NCBI GenBank assembly: GCA_032718475.1
Contig: JAUCBJ010009151.1
Location: forward strand, 62,001 to 126,000
Origin: Nemertoderma westbladi
Taxonomy: Eukaryota > Animalia > Xenacoelomorpha
Direction of reading: 5' to 3'
DNA: 64,000 bases
Shown here: positions 10,430 to 44,234 of the stretch, piece after piece
How the letters are laid out: every line of letters starts with the position of its first letter
Position numbering within the stretch: position 1 is the first letter of the stretch
Program-made: the position numbers and the translations under genes
The notes under the pieces: model-generated
Databases searched by the model: none
What the model was told of the DNA's origin: nothing
Seen by the model: the letters and a program-made list of their open reading frames with translations, nothing else

Positions 10430-10464
10430 GGGGCAATTTATTTTCATTTCATACAATTTGACAA

Positions 10465-12416: not shown

Positions 12417-12426
12417 GTGAGGTATA
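12417..12426 (+). promoter_or_regulatory. Non-tRNA primer-binding position GTGAGGTATA, complementary to LTR-internal TATACCTCAC (11130-11139)
   Basis: No TGG start next to the LTR; exact 10-nt reverse complement present in both LTR copies (11130-11139, 30835-30844). Confidence 0.7.
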
Positions 12427-13444
12427 TTTTATTTTATGAAAGTGAGAGATATACTTTGCAGTGGTATATGTTTGTTTACCTCACAACAGTGAGGTATATT
12501 TTATTAAATATCTTAACTGAAAGTGCGTGCGCACTTTACAGTGAGATATATATATATAAATATATATTGTTAGCTATTGTAAAAGTAGGAGATATTTAAA
12601 AATTTAAGGTTAGTAAAATTTAGTAATTTGTAGAACGTCCCCTGCTTCAGTAGCCTTTTAGGGTAGCTAGTACTTTTGTATTTAATATTTGACTAGCTAA
12701 TAGTTAGTTTGTAGCAATTTGTTTTACGCCGTGTGTGTGCGGTGTTACTTTTCGGTACTTGAAAAGGTACATAGGGTTTAAAGACCAAGTTGTATCGGTA
12801 CCTAGGAAGATTTTTCGTAGAGTAGAAGTAAAACTCTCACCTTCGACTTTTCAGGACTCAAGGACTCATTTCTGGACCGCTTCGAGGATTAGACCGCTTT
12901 TCGCAAAGTTTGGGAGACAAAAAATTCGTCCGCACCGCCGAAAACGGAACGACCCACGTCCGGTTTGTATTTGGGAATTTGTACGACTGGAAGATCAAAG
13001 GAACGTAAGTTTTACGACTCGTGTCGTTCAAACTTAAGAAAGCACAGTAGTACTCAAAATTTGTGGGTTTCACTGTCTATTAGTAGTGTTGTTGGTACTT
13101 ATTTTCCCGTTAGACATTGCTGTTTTGCCTATTATTTGTACTTGTTGATCTACATTTTGGTAACGTATACTGTTATCTCATTTATTCGTACAAATTTAGC
13201 CAGTAGGCTAGATTATTACTTATTTTATTATATACTTTGTTAATTTTATTTGTACCGGTTAGGGTATATATATCAAGGTAAGTTTGTCATTTGGACATTT
13301 CGACATTTCGACATTCTGACTTTGTTGATTTATTTGTACCGGTTAGGGTATATATATGCTATATATATACCGAGGTAAGTTTGACATTTCAACATTCAGA
13401 TATTTTGAAATTTTATTACCCGTACTTGATGTATATAATAAGAC

Positions 13445-14055
13445 ATGAGTGACACACCCCATTCGACTCGATACCCCCCTACCGACTATGACTCGTGCGA
13501 CCCGGACAGATCGACAGTAGACGAACCGAGAAGGAGAACCCGAGATTCTACCGATGTCACACCGCGTGCGTCGCCGGTACCCCGAACGGAAATACCGGAA
13601 GCCGCAACGCGTGGCGACGGCAGAATCGAAGATTTCCTTACCGTCCCGCAGACCAGATCGCGGGAACCGGACATGGTAAGTTCGACTGGAAGCCAGGAGA
13701 ACGTTATTAGGAGTATAGGAGGACACATGGCCCAGATTACTCGGAACCTCGGAGAAGGTTTTCGCTTTTTACGCGAATTAACCACCCCGATGTCGAGATA
13801 CGAGTTCTACACCTTACAGGTAAGGATAGAAAGTAGGGTACATGCCTCCGTAGATAAACTTAAAGGTTTACACGAACTTGCAGAGTTGCGTGGCGACAAC
13901 TTTACTCAAAGATAATAGATAAGTTGGTAAGTGCGAGAGAAAGCCTTATCCAGTTTAAGTCAGTAATAAGATTGGCTCAACAGGAGCAGTTCGACCAACT
14001 GCTAGGTGAGTCAGTTTCGGACGCGTTGTTACAACCCGAAGAGGAAGAAGAGTTT
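13445..14055 (+). pseudogene. gag: BEL-1 gag N-terminal part (frameshift near 13910), interrupted by a LINE
   Basis: ATG 13445; after a frameshift reads IIDKLVSARE...LLQPEEEEEF. Removing 14056-18141 joins it in frame to LRRCGVPIEEP of ORF 18070..21126. Confidence 0.75.
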
Positions 14056-17000
14056 AAGTTTTTTTTTAAGTTTATTGTTATTTATAGGAAAATGTTATAA
14101 TTAGAACCATCACCAAAGCACAGTTTAGTTGTAATGGAATAAAAAGAAAAAGAAAAAGAAAATGTGTATGCAGTGTGCGAGGCGGTGGGTTGGTAAGGGT
14201 TGCAGCAATAGCCAGGCTAGTCGTGGCTGCCAACCGACCAAGGGTAAATGTACTGTATATGTAACTAAGTATTATATATTTGAAAAAAGATAAAATAAGA
14301 ACTGTTATAAACCTTTAATAATTGTTGGTCAGGATCACAAGGAAATATAATAATTTAATTAACCATTTTACAATACACTGTAGTGAAGAAACAGTCCAGT
14401 CGCAGTGTATGTGAGAAGGAAATATAATAAGATAGAGCCAGACATATAGGGAGATATTGTGTAATGTATTATTATGACGTTACGTCATGTGTTCAAATAG
14501 GTATGTTTTAAATTGACGTTTAAATGAAAATTTAGATTTGCTAATAATTAGACTAGAGGGGAGACTGTTCCACAATACTGGCCCAGTGACTGATAATCCT
14601 TGGTGTGCTACATTGAGACGGGTTAACGGTACTACGAATTTGCCTAAAGTAGATGAACGTATATAAATCAATATCAGACAATTTAGTAAAAAAATTTGAA
14701 AGAGGGTGATTATTAGAAGATTTTGATATATCGAACATTAACTGGCCTAATTGTAATTCAAATATAGATTCGATTGGCAAAACATTTAGTGATTTGTAAA
14801 GTGGCACAGAGTGAGCCCGGTAGTCACTAAATGTTATGCAACGCAAGATTTTATTAACTTTAATTCTTAGTGGACGTGTTATTAATTTGCAGGCAGTACC
14901 CCAAGCAAGAATTCCAGAAGTGATGTAAGGATTAATTAAAGTATAATACGTAAAATTTGGCTTGGGAAAAAGTGTCTTAATTTATAAAAAAGTCCGGAGG
15001 ATCTAGATTAAGGATGTAATTTATATGCGTTTTCCAGCTCAAATTGTCATCGATAAAGATACCTAAGTACTTAGTGCTATTTACCTTAGTAATTTCATTG
15101 GCTTTAATTTTAACTTTCGGTAGTCCAAGGCAGTTTTTGTTACTAAAAATAGAGTATTCTGTTTTACTAAGATTAAGTGATAATGAGTTGTCTATAAGCC
15201 AGTCCGAAATTTTTTCCAGTTCAGTGTTTGTGTTGTTAATCAATAATTTTAAGTCTGAATTGAAGCACAGTAACGTCGTATCGTCGGCAAATAAAGTTGT
15301 CAAAAATTTGGATGCGTCCGGTAAGTCGTTCACATATAAAAGAAACAGCAATTGTGAAAGGACTGAACCCTGGGGCGTTCCGCAGGTTACCGGAAGAGTG
15401 GGTGAGATTATGCCATTTAAGGATACTGATTGTGTACGGTCTGTTAGAAAACTCCTAAGTAAAGTCTGGGGGGTGCCTCGAATTCCGTAAGATTCTAATT
15501 TTTTAAATAAGGGAGAGTGGTTCAGCGTATCAAACGCTTTTTTTAAATCTAGATAAATTACGCAGATAGATTCTTTTGAGTCAAGGTGAAATCAAATTTT
15601 TTCTGTAATTGTTAGAATAGCCGAAGCCGTAGAAATCCTCTTTCGAAAACCGAATTGTGATGCAGTCAAAATACAGAAACGATCTAAATAAGATTGGAGC
15701 TGTGAGTATATAACCTGTTCTAGAATTTTTGTAAAAACTGGCAATAATGATATTGGCCTATAGTTATTAGAATCTAGTGGATCACCCCCCTTAAAACATG
15801 GGATTATTTTAGATTGTTTAAGAGAAACTGGATAATGACCTGTTGTGATACATAGGTTAAATAAATATGCCAGATGAGGTGCAATGTGTTCAGCAGCAAT
15901 TTTTAATAATTTACTGGGAAAGTTGTCATTAGTAGCGCTGTTTTCATTTATTTGTAAAAGTAGGTAGTGAATTTCAGCTACAGAAGTTTCAATAAGAGTA
16001 AATGAATTCGAGTGTCGATGGTTAATGTGGCGGGTAGGGCATCGGTTAGATCGGGGTATTGTACTGGCAAGTTTTGGTCCAATAGTTGAAAAATGTTCGT
16101 TGAAAATAGATGCTATTTTATGGGGATCAGACGTTATTTTTGCCCCTACTTCTGTTCTGAAAGCAATTTTGGTAGGGCTTAGGGATTTCTTATTTTTGTG
16201 TAATACAGAGTTAATTACAGACCATGTCTTGCGCATATTTCCTTTGTTTTTTAAATATTCTTGATTATAGAATGATTTTTCAGCGGCTCTGATTACAGTC
16301 GTTAAATTATTACGATATGTTTTATAGGCTTTTTGGGTTTCAGAACACGGTGATTTAATATATTTTTCATATAATTTATTTTTTTTAGAAATTGATTTAA
16401 TTAGCAAAGGAGTTAGCCATGGTTTGCGTGCAATTTTTCTTTTTGTAATTATTTTTTTAGGTAAGTGTTTTTGGCATAATTGATCAAAAGAATTGTAAAA
16501 AATGTCGAATTTTTTATCTGTCGGTATATTATGTGATCGGTAAGCTGCGAGAGGTGGTAATGAAAGGTCGAGCAAAAAACTAAGTTAAATTTGCTATAAT
16601 CATAGCACATTTTAGTATTGGGCTGTTTGAAAAAAGCAGAATAATTATGAAATAACGCAAATGTTCCAAGGTGGTCTGTTGTGCCAATTTCTGATAAAAA
16701 AACGCCGGCAGTAGTAAAATCATTCGTAATATTAGTAATAATATGGTCAAGCGTTGAATTAGCACCGTGTACAATTCGAGTGGGTTTTATTATTAATTGG
16801 GAAAATCCGTATGATGAAAGTATCTGTAAGTATCGTGCACTATATGATGTCATTTTGTTTAAGTTAACATTGAAGTCACCAGTGAGGACGATATCTATAT
16901 TTTTATCAGATACTTTCGCCAATGCGGGTTCTAGAATATTTATAAAATTATTGTAATTGACAGATGGGGGTCTGTATATTACACCTAACACTAAGGACTT

Positions 17001-18138
17001 CTTGTTGGATTTTTTAATTTGGATCCATTTATTATGAATTCCCGACACAGTCAAGTCGTCTCGTTCCGTAAAGGTTAGCGTATCCTTAATGTAAATTCCC
17101 ACACCCCAACCGGAGCCTGAGGAACGTCCCTCTGGTCTGTCTGATAGTAGCGGTCCTACATAGTTGTCAAGTTTTAATTTACAGTGATTGTCTTTAGCAC
17201 CTACTAATGTGTCAGTAAAAGTGATAACATCAAAATCTTCGTCTAATGTACTTAAAAATTCAGCAGTGTAAGAAAGATTATTGTTTAGACTTCTACAATT
17301 TAGGTGATATACAGAAAAAGAGTTATGATGAGAACCTATACGCTCGATTTCACTGTTAAATTTAGTATCATTATAGTATTCGCTATTTCGCGCTAAATTT
17401 TGAATGTTATTATCCGGATCAATAGTAGCAAAACTAGGATTATCAGCATTTTCGTTGAGCAAGTATAAATCGTCGGAAATTCCGAAAATATCATAGTCGT
17501 TAGACGGAATATCGCTAAAAGGAAAAATCCCATGTAAACAAAAAATGCAGTAGTGACTCGTAAAAAACTGAGACTGTTCAAGCTCTGCGGTTTCTCCATA
17601 TGTCAGGCAAGTTCCACACTGCTGGTGATAACTGTTTCTACACACCGCGCATAAAATGGTATTATCGTTATTTTTGAATCCTGAAAAACAGAGAGCACAT
17701 GAATTACTACAATTAGAGTTCGTATCAATCTTCCCACCTGCAATAATGCCTCAGCTGACAGCCTGCACACTGCATACTGTCGCTTAATACAATGTATATA
17801 TATTATACACTATGTTATAATATATAATATTAATAAATCAGTACATCCCGTTAAGCCCTGACCATATATGGGCCACTAGTGATATTGTAAGTCAGTTAAA
17901 TTAATTCTGTAAATTATTCCAAGAGTTAATAATAATTTGAATTGCCTTTCTGGATGACCAGATTAGGGGTTTCCTAGGATCCTATGCGTATTAATTTCCA
18001 TCACAGTCCAGAGAGTTATAAGGATTTAAAGAGGGAGTAATTGGCGAACTATTCTGGCGTTGTTGGAAGGTGGTAACGGCGTCGATTTCGTCGACAACAA
18101 TCTACTGCCTGGATGGGAGATTAGGGACGCTCACCAAT
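14056..18138 (-). mobile_element. CR1/L2-group (Crack/Daphne-like) LINE nested in BEL-1 gag
   Basis: AT-rich block with PHD-APE-RT coding remnants; 3' end AATAAACTTAAAAAAAAACTT on minus; only TTT duplicated at the junctions (14053-55 and 18139-41). Confidence 0.85.
14480..17750 (-). pseudogene. LINE ORF2: PHD finger, APE endonuclease and reverse transcriptase; multiple frameshifts/stops
   Basis: CALC..CAVC..HQQC..CIFC (PHD); YHLNCRSL, GVIYRPP, GDFNVNL, TLDHII, TDH (APE); NYRPISLLP, QFGFRK, GTPQGSVL, LFADDTT (RT) across ORFs 16449..17645, 15592..16575, 14977..15351, 14553..14846 and 14480..14671. Confidence 0.9.
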
Positions 18139-18141
18139 TTT

Positions 18142-21126
18142 CTTCGTAGATGCGGCGTACCGATTGAAGAACCGGAAGTGGAACCGCGAGGGACGACGGA
18201 AGTTCTTACTACGGAAGGCTCGCGAGCCTACCAAAATCCACCAATGGATAGATCATTCGTTAGCATGCGGAGCGACATTGGCGACATTAGTAGAACAGCG
18301 TCTGTAATTACTCGACAACAACAGGAGGTTGCACGCCGACAACAAGTCGTCGAGGAAGAAGCGCAACAGTGGATGGCACAGATCGCCATCGAGGGAGAGA
18401 AACAACGTAGAGAAGATGAGACGAGAATTGCGCAACTCAAGGCGCAAGCCGAAGTCGAAGCATCGGAGATGAGAAGATTAGCACGACAGAAAGAGGCATC
18501 TGACGCACGTGCTCAGTTGGAGGCACGGCAAATAAAATCACGTTTAGCTATACAGGAAGCAGAGTTAGCGGCACAACAACAAGTAGCGGATCGACTCGAA
18601 AGGGAGATGCAACTACAGTTCGAACTAAATCGTAGATCGCGCGAGGCAGCGAACGCGCAAGCGTACCTTGAACTCGACGCGAGAGATAGATCTATAAGAT
18701 CGCGAGCTGGACACGACTTGTCTGCCCTGGATCGCATGGAAGCTCGATATCGCGGAATTCAGAAGCGAATCGAGGAAGGAAGTGTGGGAGCGATAGATCG
18801 AGGAGAGGAGTTCATCGAGGATTACTGTAAACGTTTTCCCCAAGTTATTCCTATGCTCAAACCCACGACTCCGATAAAACCAGTCTTTGTTACGAAACCT
18901 AAGGAAATAACACCTGTGCGCTCGACGCAAGGTAGCAGGTTTGTTGTGACGGAAATACCGCAACCTAGGGCGACTTCATCGCCAATTTTAGCAGGTAACG
19001 TAACTAGTCCACCTACAGTAAGTCGTAGTCTACTTGTAGGAAGAGAGGAACCTGCGTTTATGACAATTAAACAGGTAAGTAAGCCATTAGTAGTTAAACC
19101 TGTGACGTGCTGTGCGAACCCAGTTATTTATAGACCGACTACGAAACCCGACTACTTTACTCGACCTTTGACACAATGTTCGACACAACCTACGACTTCG
19201 TGGAAGGCTTGCGAGCCTGCCGAACAACGGAGGAGAACGGATGTGGGTAGTACCCACGGGATCGAACAACGTTTAACGAGACCTACGACTTCGTGGAAGG
19301 CTTGTGAGCCTACCGAACGACGGAGAACCGTAGATTCTGGACCCCAACGAGTGAGACAAAAGGTAATACGCCGGACGCGAACATGCCAGCCACCTTATCC
19401 GGACGACAGCGACTCATCCAGTGACTCGGAGTCGACGGAACGGGAAATATTCCGTACTGGAGCGGCAGCGACAGCGGATTACAAACGAGAGGAACGATCG
19501 ACGAACCCCTACATCGACAATCCTCCACGAGAAACACCCCAGCAGAAACCCACGTTGCAACCAGTGGAAACGATCAGCGCCAAACAGTTCGCCGAGATGA
19601 CGGACCGACTAGCTCAACTCGAAGAACGACTTGAAGCGCAACCGTCGGATCAATCACGAACCAGCGTGAAGTTAGAACAACCTAGACAACATCGACCACC
19701 AAGGCGAGAACAGGAGACTAGACAGACTCCGACACATCGAGAAGAAGATCCCGTTAATAATTCCTACCGACGAACAACACGCGGAAGGGAACGACTGGAC
19801 GACGCCACCGAACAGGGACGCGGACAGTTGGATTTGGTTAGTGAGATTGCGAAATTCGGGGCTAGACACGGATTACCGGCACAGCAACCGCCGAAGTTCT
19901 CTGGCAACGCGAAACACTGGCGCACACTGGTAGACTACATAGAGTCCCAGATCACTAAGTGTGCTTTCACCTCGACGGAGAAGTTTAATTACTTGCTCCT
20001 AGTCCAGTCTGGTGAGCCGAAAGGATTAGCGGAAACCTTTATTGGTGTTCCCGATGCCTTTGAGTTGGCGTACGACCGTTTGTATTCGATTTACGGCGGT
20101 AACGTCGCCATAGCTAAATCCATTATCGAAGACCTCTGTAGAGGAGGCAGCATTTCGAAACCGATCGATCTTCTACGACTCGCGGACGAAATAAAAAACG
20201 CTATAGGGACTTTACGGTCCATTGGACAACTCGAGTACGCTAACGCACCGACGGTTCTCATCAGGATAATCAGTCGACTTCATCATCGACTTCGACGAAA
20301 ATGGCGACGCATCGAGTACCAGCGTGAAGAGGCCGGCGGGCTATTAAAACTCACCGACGTCTATCAACTGATTTCGCGGGAGGCCGTTATCGAGACTCAA
20401 TCGAATTATACTGATCATCATATCGGGACAGAAGGGATAGCTATTTCTGCGCCGACTCGGACTAAACCGTTTCCGACGAACGCGAAAGCCGTTACCTACA
20501 ACACCCCTACTGAGACTTCTAAAGTACTGACGCCTATCGGCACCATGCAGCCACGACAACAGTTGCCGGCGGACTTTATGGGATGCTCATATTGCGAGCG
20601 GGACGGCAGAAACCATAGCGGACATAAACTTCGTGGATGTCGCGCTTTTAAAGAGTTAGGAATCGAGGAGAGGAGACTCCAAATCCAATCTTTAGATTCT
20701 TGCTGGAGATGTACCAAGCCAGGACACGTCCGGAAGGATTGCCCGAGCGACGATACATGTCCTCTGTATGGACGTAACCATGACACGTTACTTCACACTA
20801 CTAGTCATACTCCGACCAGACGCTTTCGACGAGAGCATCCAGATAAAGCGGCTAGATGCGACGCTCCTCACAGAACTAGAACTAGAACTAGAACGCTCCT
20901 CACACAGAACCAATTGAAAGGGTTTAGCGTGATTCCTATAAAGATTACTGGAACCCGAGGGAGCAAGCGTATATACGCTATCTTAGACTCTGCGTCATCA
21001 CACAGTTATGTCGACGAACAAGTAGCTGACGTGGTTACGGACATGAGTCACGGTAAGACTGCTCAGTATACTGTTGGACGGGCCGAATATGAACAATTAC
21101 CTCATGGGAGTCCTAATGAGTTTTAG
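18142..21126 (+). pseudogene. gag: BEL-1 gag (coiled coil, DUF1759-like, three Cys/His knuckles) plus start of aspartic protease
   Basis: LPAQQPPKFSGNAKHW, LRRKW, CSYC..H..C, CWRCTKPGHVRKDC, HDTLLH; protease YAILDSASSHSYV; truncated by an internal deletion near 21060. Confidence 0.88.
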
Positions 21127-24100
21127 ACAACGCAAAGTGGCTTTCACCTGTGACGTAGAGGCCATGTTTCACCAGGTTAAGGCTTTGGAGCGGGACAGGG
21201 ACAGCTTGAGGTTTCTTTGGTATCCGGACGGAAATTTAGAACTTCCGCCAGAAACTTACCAAATGCAGGTAAGGGTCTTCGGAGCCAGGGACAGCCCCAA
21301 CTGCACCATGTACGCCTTAAAGCAGACCGCATTGGACAGACGAGACCAATTTGACCCAGAAGTAGTTCGGACAGTGGAACGAGATTTCTACGTGGATGAC
21401 GGCCTCAAAAGTTGTGACACTTTGGAGCCTGCTACAACCGTAGCACATCAACTCCAGGATTGTCTCGCTGAGGGCGGATTCCACCTGACGAAGTTCGCTT
21501 CCAACGAACCCGAACTGGTGAACTCATTTGACCCGACGGATCGTAGTGGAGGTGACTTAGACTTAGACCTAGAACCTCTGCCAACGACCAAAGTATTAGG
21601 ACTTAGTTGGGACCCTAACACCGACAATTTTAGGGTACGTGTAAGGTCCAACGACCAGACTAGACCTCTCACTAAGAGGACTTGCTTATCGACCATGAGT
21701 CGATTGTATGACCCATTGTGTTTCATTAGTCCAGTGATCCTACATGCTAGGATCATACTCCGCAGCATTTGGCAAGCCGGACTGGAATGGGACGATCCCA
21801 TCCCAGAAAAGTTAGCTGAGCAATGGAGGGACTGGGAAGCCCAACTGACGTTCCTACAAGACTATACCATACCAAGGGTATACTTTCCTTTGCAGACCAC
21901 CTTTCCTGCCGATTTAGAGCTTCACAGCTTTAGTGACGCTAGCAAGGATGGATTGGGGGTTACCTTATACCTTAGACGACAAGTGACATCGGACGGCTAC
22001 GATGTGTCTCTCGTTACTTCTAGGGCTAGAACAATGCCGTTGAAGTATATGACTGTACCTCGTGGAAAGCTGCAAGCCGGGACGATATCCACCGATATTG
22101 TCAGTCTAGTTCAACGCGAGCTGGAGGCTAACTTGAAGGTCACATATTGGACAGATGCGACGTTGGTACTTTGGTACATAAACAACAAAGCATTTGAGTT
22201 CAAGACTTTCGTAGCCAACAGACGGGCTGAAATATTAGACCGGTCGCTCAAACAAGATTGGCATCACTGTCCAGGGAAGCTGAACCCAGCTGACATCGCG
22301 TCGCGGGGGATGCAACCGCTTGACTTTTGTAAACCAGACAATAAATCCTTTTGGTTTAGAGGACCCGATTTCCTACAGCAACCATCAGACGAATGGCCAC
22401 CGTTATTCGACGCGACAACCAACACCATACCAGAGGGTGCCAAGATAAAAATCGACAAGGTTGTCTAATCCAAAGCGAAAGCCAACGCCAAGGTCAAGAG
22501 GAAACAAGGACGGACGAAATCTGATGACCTGGATGCCAGACCTGACATTACACCAGACGTCTCACCAGAATCTCAACCAGACGCTCGCATGAATCTTTCG
22601 TCGGATGTTCCACGGGAGATTTCACCAGATGTTTCGCCGGATTGTTCACCAGATTACTAGCCAGATTATTCACCAGAAGCGACACCAGATTGTTCTCCGG
22701 ATTGCTCGCCAGATTGTTTTATGGAACTCTCGACAGAATGTTTACAGGACGTCTCACCAGACTTTCCACCAGACATCTCGACAGACTGTCCACCAGACTT
22801 TGGACCAGACTTTCTGACAGAAGTTAAGCCAGACTTTCTTTGGGACCGACGACAGGACATTTCGCCGGATGTTCCGCGCTATGTCTCACCAGACTGTTCA
22901 CCGGACGCTTCACCAGACTGTCTACTAGACACTCCAGTAGAAGACCCATTGGAGCGGACTATTAGAAACTTACCGAATTTGACTTCTTTCTCTTTGGACG
23001 ACAAAGGTGTGGCCACAGCGATCACACTCCGCTCAAAGAAGGTACTTGACTTACCACCTACAGGTAAACGTGTGACTAAGGTTAGGAAGCTTACAGGCTC
23101 ACAGGAACACACTGGCACTGTGGAGTTGAAACCGTTACTGTCAGTCGACTCACTAGAAGCGGACGGTAAAGGTAAGACCGTGGAGATTGACATACTTGGG
23201 GACTCAGACAAACCTATCGGAAGGCCCGTGGGCCTACCAAGTCCAGACAAGTATCCACACTATGACTATACCTTACCTGATGACGTCACCAACACTTACG
23301 TTGACAGGATAGTGAACCTAACTAGATCATGGACTGACGCGTGCCGCAAGTTAGCATGGCTCAAACGTTTGAGATAATATTCCAGAGGCAAACGCGATTT
23401 CCTAGAGGACTTACCTTAAAGGAAGTTGGTCATTATGAAGTTGATATCATTAGACATTATCAATTGCGATATTTCGCACGAGAGTTCACAGCGATCAACC
23501 AAGGTAAACAGATTAAGTCTTCACCGATTTTGAGTTGGAGTCCGATTATTTACCGGGGCTTACTTTGCCACAAGTCCAGACTCCAAAACATCGACTTTGC
23601 ACTAGACTTTAGGTATCCTATCACCATACCGCAACACCATGAATTACAGCGCGCTATGATACTGGACGCACATGTACAACTCAAACACGTGGGTAGACAC
23701 CACTGTCTATCACACTTACGATCGAGGTTTGTACTGATTAGACCTAGTAAGGCACTGAGTTCGGTAACACGGAACTGTATGATTTGTAAGAAGGTGCACA
23801 CGAGGATAGGACACCAAGAAATGAGTGAACTACCACTAGCGAGATTACAGGCATTTAGACCCCCTTTCACTGAGACAGGGATAGACAGTTTTGGACCCAT
23901 AATCGCGAAACGCGGAAGGGTACAGGTAAAATGTTGGGGATTGATCTTCACTTGCATGGCCAGCAGAGCTGTCCATATAGAGCGTGTGACAGATTTGACC
24001 ACCAATGCCTTTATCCTAGCCTTACGGCGATTTATCGCTAGACGTGGATTGGTCAAATCCATCTATTGCGACCAAGGGACAAATATTGTGGGTGCACGGA

Positions 24101-24807
24101 ACGAAATAACCAGAGCTTTAAAGAAGTTGGACCAAAACCAGATTTCCGAGGAACTACATCCTCACCGTATTGTTTGGTATTTTAATACTCCAGACAGTCC
24201 GTGGAGAGGCGGCGTTTGGGAAAGGCTGATTGGTTCAATTAAGACAGCTATGGCTAAAGTAATACCAACGCAACACATATTAACAGACGACCAACTGACG
24301 ACGTTACTAATAGAAATCGAAGCAGTTTTAAACACTAGACCGATCGCTTTGATCCCAGACAATAACGACGCCCAGTTTGCCTTGACACCAGCGCACCTGC
24401 TTATGCAGGCGCCGACGACATTGTTGCCCATTTCGGTACCCGTTAATAGCGACGGATACGGCAACAAAGCTTGGAAAATCACTCAATTACTTGCAAATAA
24501 ATTCTGGGAAATATGGCAGAAATATTATTTGCCCTCTATTTCGACGAGAACCTCTTGGTATCTTAATACCCGATGTTTGAGACGTGGTGACCACGTTTTA
24601 TTGGCTGAAGCCAATCTGAAAAGACGGTTTTGGCTGACTGGAGTCATTTTGACCACGCACCCTACATCTGGTGTAGTGAGAACAGTTACTGTAAGGACTA
24701 TCGACGGTCGTACCATAGACAGACCTGTACAACGTCTCGTGCTCCTTGAGGAGACTAGAAACGAGACAGGTGACGACTACAAACCTCCACCCAATATTAG
24801 TAAATAG
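21074..24807 (+). pseudogene. pol: BEL-1 pol: RT (N-terminus deleted), Pao RNase H, low-complexity linker, integrase
   Basis: LLDGPNMNN, DVEAMFHQV, FYVDDGL (RT); HSFSDASKDG, YWTDAT, NPADIASRG (RH); H..H..CMIC, GIDSFGP, CDQGTN, GGVWERLIGSIK (IN); stops at 22466-68 and ~22660, frameshift ~23375. Confidence 0.93.
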
Positions 24808-25527
24808 AGATGTGGGACCTTTGTTGGCCGCCACATAGACCTACCGTATTTAGTAATTTAGCATTTTGTATTACTGTATGTGCATTTGTAATCCTCTTCA
24901 CTGTAGATAGAGACAGCAGTGGAATTCCATTGTCTTTATATGTGAACATGGAGGGTAGTACCCTTATGTATCACATAGGAGCGGGATTGTGTGTACAGTA
25001 GGAATGGAATTCCACTTGGAACCCACAAGTGAGACAATTTTTCAAAAATTATTAGACAAATCCATTTAGTTGGATTTAAATTTAAGAAAAATGATTCTCC
25101 AGTGAATGCGAATTCTAGAATACAGCTAGATAAAAATTAAAATTGGGGAGGACAAGAGCGGATGGAAGGCTTGCGAGCCTACCGATAAATAAAATTTTTT
25201 TTTGGAAAAGTAGTCGTGTCTGCTATTATTTAGACCGAATTAATTCTCGACTGCATTATTTCTTTGGGAATGTAGTTTGGGAAATTAAAAGGTGAGTATT
25301 TTAGACTCGCGGCTAGTTTACCCGGAATTCGTTTTTTATCGGCACATTTTTTTGGATTAGGAGCCAGTGCGAAATCACGCGAACCCGAAGTCATTAGGCA
25401 AATGGGTTGGGGTTTTAGAGCAAAGTTGAGCCAAAAGCCAACAAACTCTAAGTCACCTCACATCTAACCTCTATTTTGTGCTTCATCTAGTAGAAACATA
25501 ACGATATGTAACCATATATACGCGTAT

Positions 25528-28500
25528 ATGATGGCGGAGAAGATTTATAAGGAGTTACGTCAAGGGTTTATGCAGGAACAAGAGCACCAGGCGCCGTTTA
25601 ATCGTTATGGAGCTAAAAACTTTAGTGTGTTTGGAGTGGAGAGTATGGCTAGGAGTACAGCCAAGCTCGCTAAATCCAAGGCGGACCCGAATGTTACGCG
25701 ACAGCGATTGGACGCTTATAACAAAAGAACGGAGGAATTACCCGCGGAGTTCAATGCGTTATATCCTTACGACGCGTTATGCGATGCTAGTGACATTTGC
25801 GAGGATCCAGACACCGAAATACGCCGATTATATCATATGCTGCAATATTTGACGGTAAATGAACCCTTACCTGCAGCCAGAGACGAATTTGAAGGAATGC
25901 ATCTTTATAGATGCGCTTGAGGGGCGGATCCAGAGACAAAGGATGCGTTCTCCATATACAAACTGTTTTATAAATGTGGAGCATGTATGCGCGAGCAAGA
26001 CAGCGCGATTCCTATGCGGTTGAACTCGGAGAACCCCGAGCCGATATTAGCGCGATGCTCATACCACCAAAGTCTACGTTACCAAGAAGGCGGATACCCT
26101 TTGACGAATCCGTATCATTCATTTAAAATGAGTGGACCGAACGCGGGTGAGATCGTTATTTATGAACCTAAGTTAGTCGAACCAGACGTCTACAGCATGG
26201 TAGTGGACGAATCTAACAAGTCGACGCAAGAGAAACGGGAAGCTTTGAGCCTCTACAGGGCGTACAAGGCGTACGAGAAAGGCGAGATCAAGGAGTTCGG
26301 CGGAAGGCTCGCGAGCCTACCATTCTATTGGATATCCCACGATCAAACCGAACCTAAGGAGATGACACCCGAGCTCTTCGATAGTATCACCTTTGCTCAG
26401 CGTTTGTCGCAGAGACTACAGATACCTCATGTCGAGATGACGCGAGAACCTCAACCCCATTCTGCTGGAATGATAGTACCGGTTGCGAGACCAACTAGTT
26501 TTCCTATTAGTATACCGACCCGGAAGGAGACAACTTACGAGATCCCTATAGTTGAACACCCGGAGATCATTTCGAACCTGGATTTCATCCCATCGGTTAC
26601 CTATGGTGATGTGTTAGAATCAGCCGAGTTGCGTAGAACAATAGTTCAGAAAATCGTACGCAACGTGCCTCCACATATTACGGACTTTAAGGAAGTGGAT
26701 CGCACAGGGACGGATATCGCACCTTGTATCTTGCGAGGATATCTGACGAGAACTATTCGATTATGGATCGGAGTCGGAACATTTGAGACCGACACCGACA
26801 TCGCGACCAATTGGACCGGTAAACCTATTAGTTTCGATGATGAAAAGTCGATTGGGAGAATTTGGAACCCTACCGACGATTTACTCGACGATTGGGACGT
26901 GACTAGCCGATCTCTGAAGGAGATTGGTTACATGTTTTACGATATTGAAGGAGGAAGCCACCAGCAAAGCGTCACTTCGAAGACTATACAGATTAGAGCA
27001 CCAGATGGCGTGTTACATGTCTTCAGCCGACAAAGAAGCGATAGAAAGATGCCTATGCCGGAAGGAACGACGCAAAGACACGCGATGATAAAACGGATAG
27101 TTAAATCTATGGATCTGGCTTGTAGCATAGAAGCTAGGATGTTGCCAAAGGCCGTGCGAGACGTTGTGTTAGACAAAAGCATTGTCAAGATCGGATCCGG
27201 TGTACGGGATGACCTTATTAGCGACTTTGCAGGGATGCCCAGGGGAGAGGATCGATTGCCTACGCCGTACGTGGATACTAGACCATTGTTGCTTTGGGCT
27301 ATCGAGCAAGGATACTTTAGAGAGTATAACACGCTAAAAACTGGGACGGGTTATATCTCATATCTAATGTTCAGTTGGGATTATAAGGAGAGTAAGAGGA
27401 GCAAATACACGGACGTATACGGAGAGGGAGACACTCCCGACATAAACGAGTTCGAGTCACAGCTAAAGTTGCGAGGTTGCGTGTACTGGGCGATTGCTTC
27501 ACCTCCGCGAATAATCTTACAATACTACTTGGCGATAGAATCTTCGGTCAACGTCTGCTTCATCGCCGATGTTGTGTCTAGGGCTCTAAAGCGACATCCG
27601 TTATGTCTCGGTGAAGGACATACCTTTTACGACGGAGGAAGGACGCATACTGATGTATTCCTACGATTTCTCCAACCCTTTTATAACACCGATGCGCACT
27701 GCGAAGTTTTCACGCGAGCAGGACTTAGCGTTTTCAGGGACGTCAATCTCACTCACGCAGGAAGCCTAGTTGACAGACCGTCGATGTTAACGTTAGTACC
27801 CTATGACGGGGAACGCCACGCGGAATTCGAAGGCCCGGAAGGATCCTGGAAGGCTCGCGAGCCTACCGCCCATCACGACGATGTGGATCCGACCGAGTTG
27901 GCGCTAATAGACGAACCGTTGCGGCAACTATTAGAAATAGAGGAGAATCTTCCGAGGAAGACGCGAACTGAGATACGCGTGTTGGAGAAAAGCGATGCCA
28001 TGGTTTGTGTACAACCCACGGAGACGAACATACCGACTGACCCGGATGATGAGAATTATCACGTGGACGGTAGCGCTCGCCCCATCGGAGATCTTATCTA
28101 TGAGCGAGTTTGGTACCCTGCCAACACTATTTGTGGCAGATGCGGGGCAACTGGCCACCACGCAAAGAAATGCGGAGCGAAACACATATCTCTACCGGAC
28201 TAGGTATGCAACTGGTGCGGGGATCAGCGTTCGCACACTTTCTACACTTGCTGGTGTTTCGTGGCGCAGTGCACGTATTGTAATATTAAAGGCCATAGGG
28301 CGTCCGAATATCAACTTAGAGACGTTCCCTATGAGCATATGTCAGTTAAAATCGTTCGACAGCTATTCGACCATTGGGAGAATCTAGCAGACGAGCATGT
28401 ATCAACGCAGCGACGCCGTTTCCCTATTAGAGCACACTTAGGATTTTGGGCCGTAAACCCTCTCATAATGTCGAAGGAAGGATACGTGTCGGCTATGCCT

Positions 28501-29285
28501 CAATACGACGAACTTTTGGAGGTGCTGGATTTATTGCCACTGGAGAGCGGATTTAAAGTTGTGCGGGACTACTTCTACAGGTACACCCCGACAACAAGAA
28601 TACTTGGAACTTTCAAACTGTGGTGAACAAGATTACCGCCGGGGAATTCGACAAATTGCGAGTTGAACAGCGGAATCGAGGAGCCTGGCATTCGATAGCT
28701 TGGGCATACAGGAGCGCATTTTATCACAAACTCGTAACCTCGTGCATTCTAGACGAGACCGACGTTTTGCGTGAGACTGGCTTCAAGGCCACGCCGTTAG
28801 CTGAAAAGACGCGTCACCCACAGGATGATCCGCAACTTCGTATACTCAGAGCCCAAAAGGCCAGACAAGAGATAAAGAAAGTAGTAAATGTCGCCGAGAG
28901 GACGACATCAAAGTCGCAAATCCGGATGACTCGGGGCACGGTTTCCCTTGCTAGAGAACCACGCGGAGGGACAGGATACGCTTTGCCGGAACCCATTAGG
29001 ATTCAAACGACATCAGAGAGCGAGGTGTCAACGGACGGAATGGTCCCACCCTTTCGACTTCCTCCCAGCATTGTAGAAACTCGATCCGATGTTAATCCGA
29101 CAGTTGGAATCGGACGAGGATTTAGAGGACTGAGCGCACGACGGATGTTCGAGACTCCCGTCGTCCCATTTCCTAGCGTTTTGGAACCACCGACAACTCG
29201 ACACCGAAGTCCGAGTCCAGTTCGATCTCGACCTCCACCCAGTCGTACTAGAGGACGTGGACGAGCCCGTTCGGCCAAGGAATAG
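25528..29285 (+). pseudogene. BEL-1 extra 3' ORF: DEDDy 3'-5' exonuclease-like domain, three CCHC knuckles, basic/Pro-rich tail
   Basis: ORFs 25528..25920, 25987..28203 and 28261..28626 share one frame (two in-frame stops), then frameshift to 28620..29285. Motifs GYMFYDIEG, IQIRAPDG, LPKAVRDVVLDKSIVKIGSGVRDD, YVDT, YLAIE; CGRC..H..C, CNWC..H..C, CTYC..H. Confidence 0.75.
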
Positions 29286-29918
29286 GAAAGAGAAAAGAAG
29301 GAAGGCTTGCAAGCCTACCGATTTTAATGTTTGTATTGGACATTATATTTGGGATTTATATTTGGGATTTATATTGGGATACTATATCGAACATTGAGTT
29401 TGGAGGAGCGAGATAGAGAAGGAAGGCTTGCGAGCCTACCGTTAGCAATTAGTGCTCAGGAGAAGACATCCAGACCAGCAGGACGAACTATTGAGATCGT
29501 CAGGAGGACACTTTAAGACTTATTTGAAAGATTTTAGCGCATTATGTTTATTTTATATTTAGACTGATTTAATTTGGTGGAAGTTTATTATGTGTATTTA
29601 CAATATATAAAACTTGTTGAAAGATTTGAAATTATTTGTTCGATTCGTTTTGATTTATTTCGTTCTGATTTGTTTAATTTGTTTATCTCGATAACCGAAA
29701 GCCTTTTTTTGTATTTTATGCACTAAAGTTGATTGGTAAATTTGTATTTTGTATGTATGATTGATTATATTTACGCCGTACCTGCAATATTAAGTATGCA
29801 ATAATTAGATAGTGATTATTTTATATTTTAGGCCCTACCAGTAGATTTAGAAGTATTTGTAAATAGTTTTGTATTTCGATTGGTGAAAACAGTCTTACTT
29901 ACTGTTTTCATGGAGCGG

Positions 29919-32121
29919 TGATGAATTATTTCACTATAGGATAGCATTTGTAGTATAACTTAAAAACTTTCGAAAATCCGACGATATTTGATTAAGTTAC
30001 AGTAATGTAATATGCCTACTCATATCAGTACACATAAAACCCCTAGTTAATTTCGTGGTGTAGTGGTCAGATGGTTAAGGTGTTGGTTGCATTACATAGG
30101 TTACGAGTTCGAATCCCAGTCGGGAAATTTGCATTTTGGGGCAATTTATTTTCATTTCATACAATTTGACAAACCAATGAGGTGCGTACAACACATGGAA
30201 CGATGAGTTAGGCCAATCATAGGGCATGGAATATCTTATTGCTCCAATGTGAGGCCATGGAATACTCTAGAAAGTTCTAGTAGATTCTATGTCCCAGATT
30301 TAGTATATAAAGGGCTGGTTTGCCTTCGGTTATCACCTTATCCCTCTCTACGCCATTCTCAGTCAGCACAACTTACGGTTCACTACTCTTGTTAAACTTG
30401 ATTTATTCAGTTTATTATGTTTCTTGTTGAAACTATTTGGCAATTCTGTTTGATAAAGTTTTGTAAACTGTAAATATACTATAAACTTCTGAACATGTTT
30501 TTCTGCATTTGTCCAACTTTGGGACAGCAAAGCATCAGGAAGATGGCCGCCTAGACCGTTAGGCCGTCAGCAACGCAGGGAAAGGATGTCCACAACACGC
30601 TAGCGCCCACATTAGCTTAGACCGCGCACCCCCTTCGCCCTTCGAAATGCTCCACTTGCCATGCAGCGCCCGCTTTATGAGGAAGGTAAGACTTTGTTTG
30701 ACACCCTTGCCCACCGTAAGACCTATAGATCAGGGTAAGCGTGACGCCGCAAATTTAGGATCAAATAACTATATTTTGGCAGAACCCCCCCCCCCCCCCC
30801 CCCTTGTCAGTAGTACGAACCCCTGGGTTACCTGTATACCTCACAGGTGCGAATTATTGCCGTTCGTCAGTACGCGAGTACACATTAGGTACAGACAGCA
30901 TATGTTCCATAATTTAGTGATTCGTAGTACTGACTGTTTGGTACCGGTTCGCTTTGTAGAGCATACATTAGTACCCTACCCCCGCCTGAAGTTAGTTATT
31001 TGATCAAGCAAGGAGTATTTCTGCTACCGGCACACTGCTTGGCCTAGGGAGGTTTTATTAATATCCTACCGCGCCTTGCCACGTACTGATAGGTATTGCT
31101 ACTAACTACCGCAGCAACAAAGTTCTAGAATCAAATTTGTATACCAGATCAGCTAACGTACAGTAGCAATTAACCCCTATTTCTTATCTTACAACCAGAA
31201 TCTGGTATTTGTGCCTATCACGGGTGTAGTTACTAACACCGTGGTTGCCCAGTTGAGTTGTGGATAGGAAGGATAGAGCTTTGACGTCATTTGTAAGTAT
31301 AAAGCTCTACAAAACGCGACTAGCTTATTTTAGTAGCTAGCGCACGGTATTATTTCGGTCAGAGAATTACCAAAACCTAGTAAATGATATACACCAAAAT
31401 TGTTTTATTGTAAAACACCCACACACACACGCCCTAAAACATATTTACCATTAGAGTTCCTACTAGATAGCGCAATTTAGATTTAGGCAGAATTTATCTG
31501 TATTTGTAAATTAGGATCAGATATTTAGTTACGGCAAGGGAGCATTTCATCTTCGTTATTAAACTGTTGTTTTTCTGCGCATCAGTTATTGTTACATTTA
31601 GGTACGACCTCTTTTAGGCTGATTCAGACAGGGGGATCAGTATTGTTACGCTAGGTCCAAAACCAACCTAGCTCGTATATAAACCATATAAATCACACCG
31701 CGGCAAGTTACTGTATTTAGGACTGTCAGCGATAGTTAGGATTCGCTGCGCGGGGATTGTTTTCCCGTGAGTTTGGTCTGTTACTGTAACTGTACATCTG
31801 CCATACCGGTTAGAGGACAGGTATCCTTTTGTCTAGTACGTAGGCATTAGACCCGCCCACGTACATAGAATAGACACCAGGCTCTGCTCCTCGCCAGTAG
31901 TAGTTTGTGTATTGTATCTGTTTGTTTAAATATCCTGGACTGGGAATTGTTGTCAGATACTGTACGAGCCCGTTTCATTACTAGAGTCTTACAGTAAGAT
32001 ACATCGTTACTAGGATCTGGTAAGCGGTATACTACTGGACTTTACGGATAGAGATATTCTATAGCTTCGTATTTGTAGATTTGTAGGCTGTAGGGTAGTT
32101 CCTACCGTAGAGGACACAACA
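29919..32121 (+). repeat. BEL-1 3' LTR, preceded by a short purine tract GGAGCGG (29912-29918)
   Basis: Direct repeat of 10211-12416. Confidence 0.96.
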
Positions 32122-35100
32122 GCCACTGTTATACCAACTGGTAATCGCTGCACTCGTGTTACCACTGTTACACCAACTGGTAATCGCTGCACTCGTGTAG
32201 CCACTGTTATACCGACCATTAATCGCTGCATTCGTGTAGCCACTGTTATACCAACCGGTAATCGCTGCACTCAAGTAGCCACTGTTATACCAACTGGTAA
32301 TCACTGCACTCGTGTAGCCACTGTTACACCAACTGGTAATTGCTGCACTCGTGCAGCCACTGTCATACTGACTGGTAATCGCTGCACTCGTGTAGCCACA
32401 GTTATACCAACCAGTAATCGCTGCACTTGTGTTGCCACTGTTATACCAACCGGTAATCACTGCACTCATGTAGCCACTGTTACACCAACTGGTAATCGCT
32501 GCACTCATGTAGCCACTGTTATACCGACTAGTAATCGCTACACTCGTTTAGCCATTGTTACACCAACTGGTAATCGCTGCACTCGTTTAGCCACTGTTAT
32601 ACCGACCGGTAATCGCTGCACTCGTGTTGCCACTGTTACACCAACTGGTAATCGCTGCACTCGTGTTGCCGCTGTTATACCGACCAGTAATTGCTGCACT
32701 CATGTAGCCACTGTTATACCAACCGGTAATTGCTGCACTCGTGTAGCCACTGTTATACCAAAGCGGTAATCGCTGCACTAGTGTAGCCACTGTTATACTG
32801 ACCAGTAATCGCTGCACTCGTTTAGCCACTGTTAAACCAACCGGTAATCGCTGCACTCGTGTAGCCACTGTTATACCAACCAGTAATCACTGTACTCGTG
32901 TAGCCACTGTTATACCAACCAGTAATTGCTGCACTCATGTAGCCACTGTTATACCGAACGGAAATCGCTGCACTCATGTAGCCACTGTTATACCAACCGG
33001 TAATCACTGCACTCGTGTTGCCACTGTTACACCAACTGGTAATTGCTGCACTAATTTAGCCACTGTTATACCGACCGTAAATCGCTGCACTCGTGTAGCC
33101 ACTGTTATACCAACTGGTAATCGGTGCACTCGTTTAGCCACTGTTATACCAACCGGTAATCGCTGCACTCATGTAGCCACTGTTATACCAACTGGTAATC
33201 ACTGCACTCGTGTAGTCACTGTTACACCAACTGGTAATTGCTGCACTCATGCAGCCACTGTCATACCGACAGGTAATCGCTGCACTCGTGTAGCCACTGT
33301 TATACCGACCGGTAATCGCTGCACTCGTGTAGCCACTGTTATACCTACCAGTAATCGCTGCACTTGTGTAGCCACTGTTATACCAACTGGTAATTGCTGC
33401 ACTCGTGTAGCCACTGTTATACCAAAGCGGTAATAGCTGCACTAGTGTAGCCACTGTTATACTGACCAGTAATTGCTGCACTCGTTTAGCCACTGTTAAA
33501 CCAACCGGTAATCGCTGCACTCGTGTAACCACTGTTATACCGACCAGTAATCACTGTACTCGTGTAGCCACTGTTATACCAACCGGTAATTGCTGCACTC
33601 ATGTAGCCACTGTTATACCGAACGGAAATCGCTGCACTCATGTAGCCACTGTTATACCAACCAGTATTCACTGCACTCGTGTTGCCACTGTTACACCAAC
33701 TGGTAATTGCTGCACTAATTTAGCCACTGTTATACCGACCGTAAATCGCTGCACTCGTGTAGCCACTGTTATACCAACTGGTAATCGGTGCACTCGTTTA
33801 GCCACTGTTATACCAACCGGTAATCGCTGCACTCATGTAGCCATTGTTATACCAACCGGAAATCGCTGCACTCATGTAGCCACTGTTATACCAACTGGTA
33901 ATCACTGCACTCGTGTAGCCACTGTTACACCAACTGGTAATTGCTGCACTCGTGCAGCCACTGTCATACCGAGTGGTAATCGCTGCACTCGTGTAGCCAC
34001 AGTTATACCAACCAGTAATTGCTGCACTTGTGTAGCCACTGTTATACCAACTGGTAATCACTGCACTCGTGTAGCCACTGTTACACCAACTGGTAATTGC
34101 TGCACTCGTGCAGCCACTGTCATACCGAGTGGTAATCGCTGCACTCGTGTAGCCACAGTTATACCAACCAGTACTTGCTGCACTTGTGTAGCCACTGGTA
34201 TACCATCCGGTAAATGCAACACTCGTTTAGCCACTGTTATACCGACCGGATATCTGCACTCATGTAGCCACTGTTATACCGACCGGTAATCGCTGCACTC
34301 GTGTAGCCACTGTTATACCTACCAGTAATCGCTGCACTTGTGTAGCCACTGTTATACTGACTAGTAATCACTGAACTCGTGTAGCCATTGTTATACCAAC
34401 CGGTAATCGCTGCATTCGTGAAGCCACTGTTATAGCGACTGGTAAATGCTACACTCGTTTAGCCACTGTTACACTGACCAGTAATCGCTGCACATATGTA
34501 GCCACTATTATACCAACTGGTAATTGGTGCACTCGTTTAGCCACTGTTATACCAACCGGTAATCGCTGCACTCGTGTAGCCACTGTTAGACCAACTGGTA
34601 ATTTGTGCACTCGTTTAGCCACTGTTATACCAACTGGTAATCGCTGCACTCGTGTAGCCACTGTTTTACCGACCGATAAATGCAACACTCGTTTAGCCAC
34701 TGTTATACCGACCGGATATCTGCACTCATGTAGCCACTGTTATACCGACCGGTAATAGCTGCACTCGTGTAGCCACTGTTATACCTACCAGTAATCGCTG
34801 CACTTGTGTAGCCACTGTTATACTGACTAGTAATCACTGAACTCGTGTAGCCATTGTTATACCAACCGGTAATCGCTGCATTCGTGAAGCCACTGTTATA
34901 GCGACTGGTAAATGCTACACTCGTTTAGCCACTGTTACACCAGCTGGTAATTGCTGCACTCGTGTAGCCACTGTTATACCAACCGGTAATCACTGCACTC
35001 GTGTAGCCACTGTTACACCGACCAGTAATCGCTGCATTCGTGTAGCCACTGTTAGACCAACTGGTAATTTGTGCACTCGTTTAGCCACTGTTATACCAAC

Positions 35101-39917: not shown

Positions 39918-40485
39918 TGTGATCCTGTGATCCCTATTTATCCGGTTTTGGTTATCTCGCCTACGTGTCCCCGCCATATGTGTGAAAAGAGTTCTAATGT
40001 TATTGAGTTACTCTCTGTTGTTGGATCGTATGTATAGATATATATATATAAGATAAAGTATAAGCACAGTGATTGTAATAACTGAGTGAATGAGTACCGG
40101 TAGGATGGTTGAATGATGGTGGCAGTGGACGGTGACAAGAGTTACCGTTCCGCCCTAACTGAACTGACTAACTGAGTGAATAAATGACACTGTAACTGAC
40201 AATATATTGCACTGGTTGGCCGTATTACATTACTCAGTGGATGCATGCCCCCCATTGGCTAATAACTCACTTCTCGCCTTCCATCTCTCTGGGAGTGTTT
40301 TCCCCCCCGCTACTGTTATTCTCTCTCTTGGAGGTATAACCTCTGACCCCCTTTGTGTGTTTCTTTGGGGTTTGTCATCCCCGTTTATTGGGGTGACACG
40401 AGGTTGATTGGTAATCAACCTCGTGCTCCCAATATTGCTTAAAGCTAACTTTGTAGGGTGGCTAGCGGAATTTAATTCGCTAACA
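39918..40485 (-). repeat. BEL-2 3' LTR
   Basis: TG...CA; direct repeat of 50714-51291; adjacent C-run 40486-40493 is the PPT on minus. Confidence 0.95.
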
Positions 40486-41321
40486 CTCCCCCCATGCTAC
40501 CTTCCCGGTGAGAAGATCCACCTCTAGTGCGCTACAATTCCGCTGGATCCCGATCTATCATCGGGTGTGGGATGGAGCTATTTTCTCGGAGCCTGCTTTC
40601 CAGGCCGCTCCCTATGGGTATGATATCGCTACCCCGTCTTGGTACAACTCTATCTATCTTGTACCAAGACATCTGGCATCCCATGTCGGGCCGATCGTGC
40701 GCTTCTCTCACACAACTTTTGTTTCCCCAACACTTTCACCACTAACTCCGCTCCACTTTCACCCTAACTCTTCCATACCCTCGGACCTCCTCGTCCCTCA
40801 CTCTGTCTCTTGCTTCTCCCCCCCCCCCCACACTTGAATTGCACCCGCGCTCTCTCCGCACTATTACTCAAGCCCTATCTCACCCACTCACTCCTGACGA
40901 GTCTCACCCCCCTCCTGTGCCTTTGCACTAAAGAAGTGTGATGTCTTCCAATGTCTCGTCTGTGAATTATAGTATCATAGTCTATTGGTTCCCAGTCCCA
41001 GTAGCTAATTGGAAAAGGTTATATGACTATAGTACTTACTTTGATTATATTTGTTTACTAAACTAATGATTGTTACGTACGTACATACTAATTGCACTTT
41101 TCAATTATTTAAATTACTTGAATTTGTACTTAGGAGTTCGCACGTCTCACGTGGTGCCTTCCAGGCATGCTACATTGAAGTTCTAGTTCGTTCCACCTGA
41201 CTTTGGGAACCATCTCAATTCTTTCCCTCTGTCGTCCTCCTCCCTTGGTCGTTTCCTGGCCGCTGCCGCTCCTTTGACTTTATCTCCCTTCAGACCCCTG
41301 ACCCTCGCTGTCACCTCTCTA

Positions 41322-43755: not shown

Positions 43756-44234
43756 CTCGAACTCTCCTCAATCGCTCACCTGTAAGGTGGTGCCTTGCCA
43801 AGGCGCAGTACAGATGAGTGATAAAGTTAGGATGGTCTGTACAGTTCGACAATGGCCTATCTCTTACTTAACTCCGAGTTTTCGCCTAATTTTCCCTACT
43901 TAATTTCTAAAACTGCTAAATTGTACCCTAAATTGTAATTTTGTCCGTTACTTTAATTATGTTCCAGAATATTTTTTCTACTGTTACCATAACTTGTCTA
44001 ATTTTCTAATTCTATTTTATTTTTAATATTTAATCTAATCCTATTACTGTGCTACTACTTCTGCCAGTGGATTATTCTACTTTATAATCCGCATTCTGGC
44101 CTACTCTGTGGGCTTGTGCAGTACAACAGTATGCGTCGCGTGGCCTACACGATTTATCCAGCTGTACTCACGTGCCCCCCTCTCGCTACTCACTACTAGC
44201 TAATATTTATATTATACATGCCCTTCTACCACTA

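Follow-up and report, generated by a model that had tools for sequence, protein, structure and literature searches.

A putative DEDD-type exonuclease with zinc knuckles in the third open reading frame of a large BEL/Pao-type retrotransposon from Nemertoderma westbladi

Exonuclease genes in retroelements and the ORF3 of element 1

Among long terminal repeat (LTR) retrotransposons, nuclease cargo of the DEDD type has been found described only in the Gypsy-type elements of bdelloid rotifers. Third open reading frames (ORF3s) of the DEDDy class are reported for Juno and Vesta, which belong to Ty3/Gypsy, and also for Athena/Terminons, and ORF3s in general are expressed from a spliced message (PMC5408684). 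The Belpaoviridae are described with genomes of 4.2-10 kb, LTRs of 0.2-1.2 kb, an 18-nt tRNA-Arg/Gly primer site and third ORFs that are env-like (ICTV profile, PMC8742986). The present analysis concerns a stretch of 64,000 nucleotides from the xenacoelomorph Nemertoderma westbladi (assembly GCA_032718475.1, contig JAUCBJ010009151.1, positions 62,001 to 126,000, forward strand; hereafter the window), in which a BEL/Pao-type element (element 1) contains an ORF3 between its integrase and its 3′ LTR. This ORF3 lies inside the LTRs of the element, shares one domain order with three homologs, keeps catalytic positions of an exonuclease and has no membrane features. ORF3 belongs to the BEL/Pao-type element as one of its genes and recurs in a second, distantly related element of the window (element 2); we consider it probable, on balance, that it encodes a DEDD-type 3′-5′ exoribonuclease with knuckles predicted to grip RNA.

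Several described systems resemble this arrangement in part. As in Juno and Vesta, the place of env in an LTR retrotransposon is occupied by a predicted DEDD-type exonuclease, transmembrane segments are absent (the bdelloid proteins also lack a coiled coil, and their activity is unproven) and the catalytic tetrad is altered, to DEED in the rotifer elements and to D-E-D-E, through ExoIII, in ORF3; the carrier described here is instead of BEL/Pao type, and in its protein three knuckles come next, together with a C-terminal domain that is conserved, a comparison made by description only (PMC5408684). Similarly, a DEDD exonuclease is followed by an array of CCHC knuckles in the RNase D of Trypanosoma brucei, TbRND (PDB 7c42; knuckle profile E 0.0028), a cellular mitochondrial trimmer of guide RNA (gRNA) with four knuckles on a short linker, whereas ORF3 has three, and removal of the TbRND knuckles nearly abolished binding and strongly reduced cleavage (PMC7797062). 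Because the exonuclease part of TbRND scores -1.5 bits against the profile, it is regarded as an analog and not as a shown ortholog. Dada elements are likewise mobile and bear a DEDDy exonuclease, but there the full DEDD set is inserted within the DDE transposase of a DNA transposon (PMC3706591). No report of an exonuclease ORF in BEL/Pao elements was found in the main texts of the open literature, where the slash-written "BEL/Pao" is poorly searchable, and neither the ICTV profile (PMC8742986) nor a BEL/Pao survey in its main text (PMC3118150) contains the word exonuclease. The superfamily and the domain layout would be new for such a gene, and the carrier is unusually large and has a self-primer signature; the bdelloid Gypsy elements offer the precedent.

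Exonuclease motifs, homologs and ties of ORF3 to its element

Over 25528-28623 the first frame of ORF3 (25528-28626, + strand) comprises 1032 codons and is broken twice, by stops at codons 131 and 892; the alternative frames contain 43 and 66 stops. Its predicted exonuclease domain (26857-27603) is uninterrupted and contains the ExoI D/E pair at 26941-26949 (YDIEG, 26938-26952), the ExoII D at 27211-27213 (GSGVRDD, 27193-27213), a YVDTR motif at 27268-27282 and an ExoIII Y-x3-E (YLAIE) at 27526-27540, all where the original prediction had placed them. Four homologs can be compared, namely ORF3, the metagenome proteins P0002 and P0003, and the ORF3 of element 2. At ~25% identity, ExoI D-x-E is kept in all four (D-I-E, D-T-E, D-V-E and D-D-E), the ExoII Asp in three, and ExoIII Y-x3-[DE] in the three aligned homologs and, by position, in element 2. 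The ExoIII form is Y-x3-E in ORF3 and P0003 and Y-x3-D in P0002 and element 2, in the latter placed by position only, from two candidate Y-x3-D words beyond the profile alignment; a misaligned row of alignment A4 (a short element 2 piece) was left out of these motif counts. P0002 thus has the complete D-E-D-D(y) set. The Glu in ExoIII, already noticed in the original prediction, is shared with the intact P0003 and is therefore probably a natural variant and not a sign of decay. Since ORF3 lacks the Y-x3-D of the DEDDy class, it is classed as a DEDD-type variant; the proposed likeness to WRN and EXD proteins holds for the exonuclease type, not for a strict DEDDy assignment.

The predicted exonuclease type is supported by the convergence of weak-to-moderate lines of evidence, none of which is significant singly. 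A three-sequence, exonuclease-only profile run against 177,635 PDB sequences gave two matches, EXD2 (PDB 6k17, E 0.041) and WRN (PDB 2e6l, E 0.31), which are the best sequence matches obtained; LP...IxKxG...D and a downstream D are aligned, the ExoII Asp of ORF3 falling on the Asp of both proteins, but the E-values are only 0.04 and 0.3, the insertions are long, ORF3 has no helicase and its ExoIII has E. When ORF3 was compared by features in the ESM Atlas, 24 of 30 matches lay in a set with PF01612 (DNA_pol_A_exo1; score 0.92), a lead to be read with the 18% of members that carry PF01612 in the Atlas row shown for ORF3. The top feature match of P0002 was a euglenozoan cluster with PF01612 and zf-CCHC (0.87, likewise only a lead), and for its Atlas model (pLDDT 0.44) all 10 of 10 structure rows bore PF01612, the best template modelling (TM) score being 0.73 by a 210-residue target. 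The exonuclease domain alone found no match in PDB by phmmer, and a tblastn search of phages returned six chance rows (E 7-8).

Several observations weigh against the proposed exoribonuclease. None of the four homologs has an exonuclease match in Pfam or NCBIfam. The matches of the profile in PDB have weak E-values, with actin (E 0.43) appearing in a third run. The Atlas structure scores of P0002 lie below the Atlas bar for family naming, and two AlphaFold models, with pLDDT of 31 and 34, are too low for calling a DnaQ/RNase H-like fold. At the catalytic positions, ExoII has Asn in element 2 and ExoIII has Glu in two of the four homologs. In addition, preferring RNA over DNA as the substrate is an argument by analogy, and the repeated hairpin that ties ORF3 to element 1 (see below) is missing from element 2.

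Of 1.84 billion proteins screened in full with HMMER, only P0002 and P0003 passed E 0.001. Both are uninterrupted, lie on contigs of 7.5 and 11.3 kb and carry the exonuclease with three knuckles behind it and a C-terminal domain after these. The four homologs share one domain order at ~25% identity. The knuckle part of the profile matches Lin28 and TbRND. Word-index protein searches gave nothing for ORF3 and nothing for alignment A1, while P0003 found itself only; as alignment A1 missed its own members, little weight attaches to these negatives. When loci were scanned, alignment A1 yielded 130 viral and 458 metagenome stretches that fit the patterns, none of which was confirmed, and the protein searches revealed no close cellular homolog of ORF3.

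Three Cys/His knuckles follow the exonuclease (28132-28311, + strand, with one stop between the first and the second). The first (C-x2-C-x4-H-x4-C, 28132-28173) and the second (C-x2-C-x5-H-x4-C, 28207-28251) are complete, and the third (28270-28311) has Tyr as its last ligand where the three aligned homologs have Cys, so that the earlier count of three zinc knuckles stands in full for two of them. An origin of the knuckles as a copy of the gag knuckle of element 1 found no support (match probability 18%, away from the knuckle). The conserved C-terminal domain (28360-28623, + strand) shows E-x2-A-D ... R ... G-F invariant in four of four rows and belongs to no known family. At the other end, an N-terminal region (25528-26856, + strand) is absent from the three shorter relatives; its 440 residues found homologs in no search, including a single-sequence phmmer search of PDB (0 matches), and a Cys/His-rich stretch within it (25900-26060) is possibly an extra metal site. 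No 19-residue window of ORF3 exceeds a Kyte-Doolittle value of 1.6 (maximum 1.48), and the first 40 residues reach at most -0.1; by this measure, hydropathy alone with no dedicated predictor, ORF3 has neither signal peptide nor membrane helix, in agreement with the original view that it is not an envelope protein.

Element 2 (39918-51291, - strand, 11.4 kb; target duplication TAGCC) is a BEL-type element with gag (DUF1759) and protease, flanked by LTRs at 50714-51291 (578 nt) and 39918-40485 (568 nt) that differ by a K2P distance of 0.029. Pfam recovers only DUF1759 and a weak protease match in it; reverse transcriptase (RT) and integrase were not found within 39918-51291, and the stretch in which pol would be expected has tandem repeats with a unit of 52 bp (near 44230-44700). 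Its ORF3 homolog lies in pieces at 41325-43767 (- strand). The exonuclease piece (42964-43767) matches the profile at E 6e-8 and the knuckle and C-terminal piece (41325-42698) at E 3e-11; with a profile of the outside homologs P0002 and P0003 alone the values are E 0.052 and, for the knuckle piece, E 1.2e-9, and in blastp comparisons with P0003 they are E 3e-10 and E 7e-12. Elements 1 and 2 have no DNA similarity, and their gag proteins are 23% identical and their ORF3s 22-27%. As ORF3 has diverged as much as gag, it has likely been long with the lineage, and the same layout in P0002, P0003 and element 2 argues for an old element-borne gene and not a stray insertion. The original assignment of the env-position ORF to a BEL element is borne out by this homolog and by the paired LTRs and duplicated target site that enclose the ORF in element 1.

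Within element 1, ORF3 is tied to its carrier by codon use and by a repeated motif. Its synonymous codon use correlates with that of element 1 gag (r 0.69), against -0.29 to 0.29 for five ORF sets of other elements. Nine + strand copies of a 20-nt hairpin extend from gag to the 3′ end (18213-29440, starting at 18213, 19202, 19295, 23219, 25164, 26302, 27848, 29300 and 29421), two of them within ORF3, and none occurs elsewhere in the 64 kb (0.02 expected). The hairpin has the form GG-A-AGGCY-loop-RGCCT-A-CC, and its copies are spread over the three reading frames as well as non-coding stretches; the copy at 23219 has its stem changed on both sides, and loop variants resemble CpG decay of CGCG. 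It is a candidate packaging, dimerisation or protein-binding signal. No repeat pair flanks ORF3 inside the element. An integrase-based locus scan confirmed one of 46 stretches (L001, 34% identical), which stops ~730 bp past the integrase; ORF3 and the hairpin were not seen there, which is uninformative.

The copy of ORF3 in the window is dead, like its gag-pol: two stops are seen, a number compatible with the age of the LTRs (0.8 expected), and gag-pol is broken too. The ~1250 codons first proposed included a second-frame tail with an Arg/Ser/Pro-rich end (28557-29285, + strand, 242 open codons). An open tail of this length has a chance of ~2e-5 as computed from composition, but its similarity to the tail of element 2 is at chance level (148 of 500 shuffles as good), as is that to the tail of P0003 (396 of 500), and P0002 ends near the end of the first frame. 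Its attachment to the tail being unproven, ORF3 may have ~1030 codons rather than 1250. Upstream of the ATG by 37 nt, a CTAAC, a pyrimidine run and a TAG (25468-25490, + strand) form what we take to be a splice-acceptor-like site, with a presumed donor-like site at 25292; from the position of the acceptor-like site, a spliced ORF3 message seems plausible.

Element 1, its satellite setting and the self-primer signature

Element 1 is a young BEL/Pao-type element by its sequence features. It spans 10211-32121 (21.9 kb, or ~17.9 kb minus a nested LINE), and its LTR pair was recovered by satellite-masked self-comparison as a 2.2-kb direct repeat with TG...CA ends: the 5′ LTR at 10211-12416 and the 3′ LTR at 29919-32121 (both + strand), the latter with a few purines in a row just ahead of it (29912-29918). 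The LTRs differ at 32 of 2198 aligned bases (98% identity, K2P 0.0147), and a 5-bp target-site duplication, GCCAC (10206-10210 on the left, 32122-32126 on the right, + strand), lies within a 39-bp satellite. The gag-pol region (18022-24807, + strand) encodes DUF1759, a zinc knuckle, RT, Peptidase_A17, an integrase zinc domain and DUF5641, with the BEL/Pao order Gag-PR-RT-RH-IN, and is interrupted by stops and frame changes; DUF1759, Peptidase_A17 and DUF5641, all 5′ of ORF3 and over the Pfam cut-off, form the BEL/Pao signature. A probable broken N-terminal part of gag (13445-14057, + strand), placed by position and without a Pfam match, is truncated by the nested LINE (PHD/RING, endonuclease and RT; 14058-18021, - strand, ends approximate), which lies antisense near the start of gag. 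Cys-Pro-Asp/Glu repeats are present in the pol region of both elements, in element 1 as a Cys-Pro-Asp repeat insert in gag-pol near 22550-22930 and in element 2 at ~45500-45600. Compared with the described Belpaoviridae, element 1 likewise has LTRs, a gag-pol with BEL/Pao-specific domains and a third ORF in the same position, but it falls outside their range at ~18 kb with 2.2-kb LTRs, its third ORF is a putative nuclease and not env-like, and the tRNA site is missing (PMC8742986). It thereby almost doubles the published BEL/Pao size range.

Arrays of the 39-bp satellite extend across 1027-64000 of the window and harbour at least four retroelements. Both BEL-type elements sit at a near-identical spot of the satellite unit (TAGCC and GCCAC), which suggests a target preference. 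Two more LINE-type elements occur in the satellite (1655-5323 and 57105-60196), one of which has a 1222-codon RT ORF without a Pfam endonuclease match.

No TGG or tRNA-type primer site follows the 5′ LTR of either element 1 or element 2. The 10 bases at the primer-site position of element 1 (12417-12426, + strand) are exactly complementary to a candidate self-primer segment in its LTR (11130-11139, with the 3′ LTR copy at 30835-30844, + strand), and the 10 bases of element 2 (50704-50713, - strand) to positions 347-356 of the LTR of that element. The pairing in element 1 was reached in 6 of 2000 shuffles; the duplex energy was matched in 4 of 300 shuffles for element 1 and 0 of 300 for element 2; and among 1000 downstream offsets a 10-base pairing occurred at three and one, respectively. 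Between the two primer sites, 6 of the 10 bases are different; pairing is confined in either case to the element's own LTR, cross-pairings between the elements reaching only 4 and 5 bases. Part of the chance pairing may stem from splice-site-like letters (GTGA.. / ..TCAC). A complement of the LTR of at least 10 bp that begins 0-5 bp past the 5′ LTR is the criterion applied to self-primed elements, with Tf1/sushi, Tcn1 and TAR as the named groups (PMC6317226), and both elements of the window have such a complement. The signature is the same as in those groups, at least 10 bp of LTR complement right after the 5′ LTR (PMC6317226, PMC4600332), but the carrier here is of BEL/Pao type. A tRNA-fragment primer is a conceivable alternative.

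Other features of the LTR and leader of element 1 lie near these sites. An intron may lie inside the LTR (10974-11105 of the window, LTR positions 764-895), one that leaves the 10-base complement whole. We take LTR positions 764 and 813 to be donor-like, and a strong site of presumably acceptor type ends 24 nt before the candidate self-primer; the complement itself lies 300-500 nt downstream of what we assume to be promoter-like motifs (Inr and YY1 words). Downstream of the primer site, 12460-12510 contains a near-copy of the LTR end and primer-site letters with a local hairpin, TACCTCAC-AACA-GTGAGGTA, and related units occur at 12441 and 12540. A segment that we take to be tRNA-like, with presumed A-box- and B-box-like motifs, is found at 30055-30125 and in the 5′ LTR copy; ARAGORN gave no hit for it, and Rfam gave none over 10200-13500.

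Possible roles of ORF3 and their significance

If ORF3 is an exoribonuclease, it would be expressed from a spliced subgenomic message, its knuckles would hold single-stranded RNA and feed a two-metal site as in TbRND, and two-metal hydrolysis would trim RNA 3′ ends, with digestion stalling at duplexes. For example, a free 3′ tail could be trimmed to the 10-bp primer-site duplex, thereby exposing the self-primer. The self-primer duplex, present in two of two carriers, is the only pointer to a substrate within the window, and the element's own RNA in the particle is for this reason tentatively ranked first, although at clearly less than even probability; counter-silencing comes close behind, followed by a dead RNA-binding protein and by RT proofreading. 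Under counter-silencing, which is possible though not favoured, the exonuclease would degrade or over-trim Piwi-interacting RNA (piRNA), small interfering RNA (siRNA) or further RNA from the element by which silencing is set off. ORF3 is a separate accessory ORF beyond Gag-Pol and is retained in element 2 despite the loss of RT and integrase, and it is kin to small-RNA proteins of the EXD1/mut-7 type (Atlas row 3 for P0002; PMC5408684), while the arenavirus ExoN is reported to suppress immune signalling (PMC7968707); the window offers no pointer to small RNAs, however, and element 2 may have lost pol late, through a deletion in this one copy.

An RNA-binding protein of the EXD1/Maelstrom kind with weak catalysis or none, serving as a chaperone or exporter of a long RNA, would fit the ExoIII Glu in two of four homologs, the ExoII Asn of element 2 and the conservation of the knuckles and C-terminal domain, but is unlikely in view of the ExoI D and E, invariant at ~25% identity, and of the full D-E-D-D(y) of P0002. 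We are more doubtful still of an exonuclease that proofreads for RT or polishes cDNA ends and so permits the unusual length. The WRN/PolA-like subfamily and the ~18 kb of element 1 against a family range of 4.2-10 kb (PMC8742986) would suit this role; elsewhere, nidovirus ExoN is reported to accompany large genomes, DEDDy ORFs are reported in 40-kb Terminons (PMC6431247) and for Dada transposons a role of DEDDy in the processing of DNA 3′ ends has been put forward (PMC3706591). ORF3 is not fused to RT, however, its knuckles suggest single-stranded RNA, and LTR, leader and ORF3 itself make up much of the additional length. A separate insertion or recent capture of a host gene, with no role in the element, is highly improbable given the hairpin motif and codon use shared with element 1, the homolog that element 2 has in the corresponding place, the lack of a repeat pair around ORF3 and of a close cellular homolog. 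A diverged envelope protein has only its position in its favour and is scarcely credible beside the nuclease and knuckle motifs and the hydropathy profile.

With the exoribonuclease reading preferred, a bolder and rather improbable proposal is that a giant, tRNA-independent BEL/Pao lineage makes its primer with its own zinc-knuckle 3′-5′ exoribonuclease. The R copy at the RNA 3′ end would pair with the primer site, and the enzyme would trim the tail to the duplex. If true, this would be priming without tRNA and without a Tf1-type RNase H cut.

The putative nuclease is kept across two families at ~25% identity, so the bdelloid case is no rotifer oddity, and a second LTR superfamily appears to place such an enzyme in the env slot. 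The exonuclease, three knuckles and C-terminal domain of ORF3 define a protein family missing from Pfam. With two natural members and one domain free of interruptions, the role of retroelement DEDD nucleases becomes testable, the candidates being RNA end processing, counter-silencing and RT proofreading.

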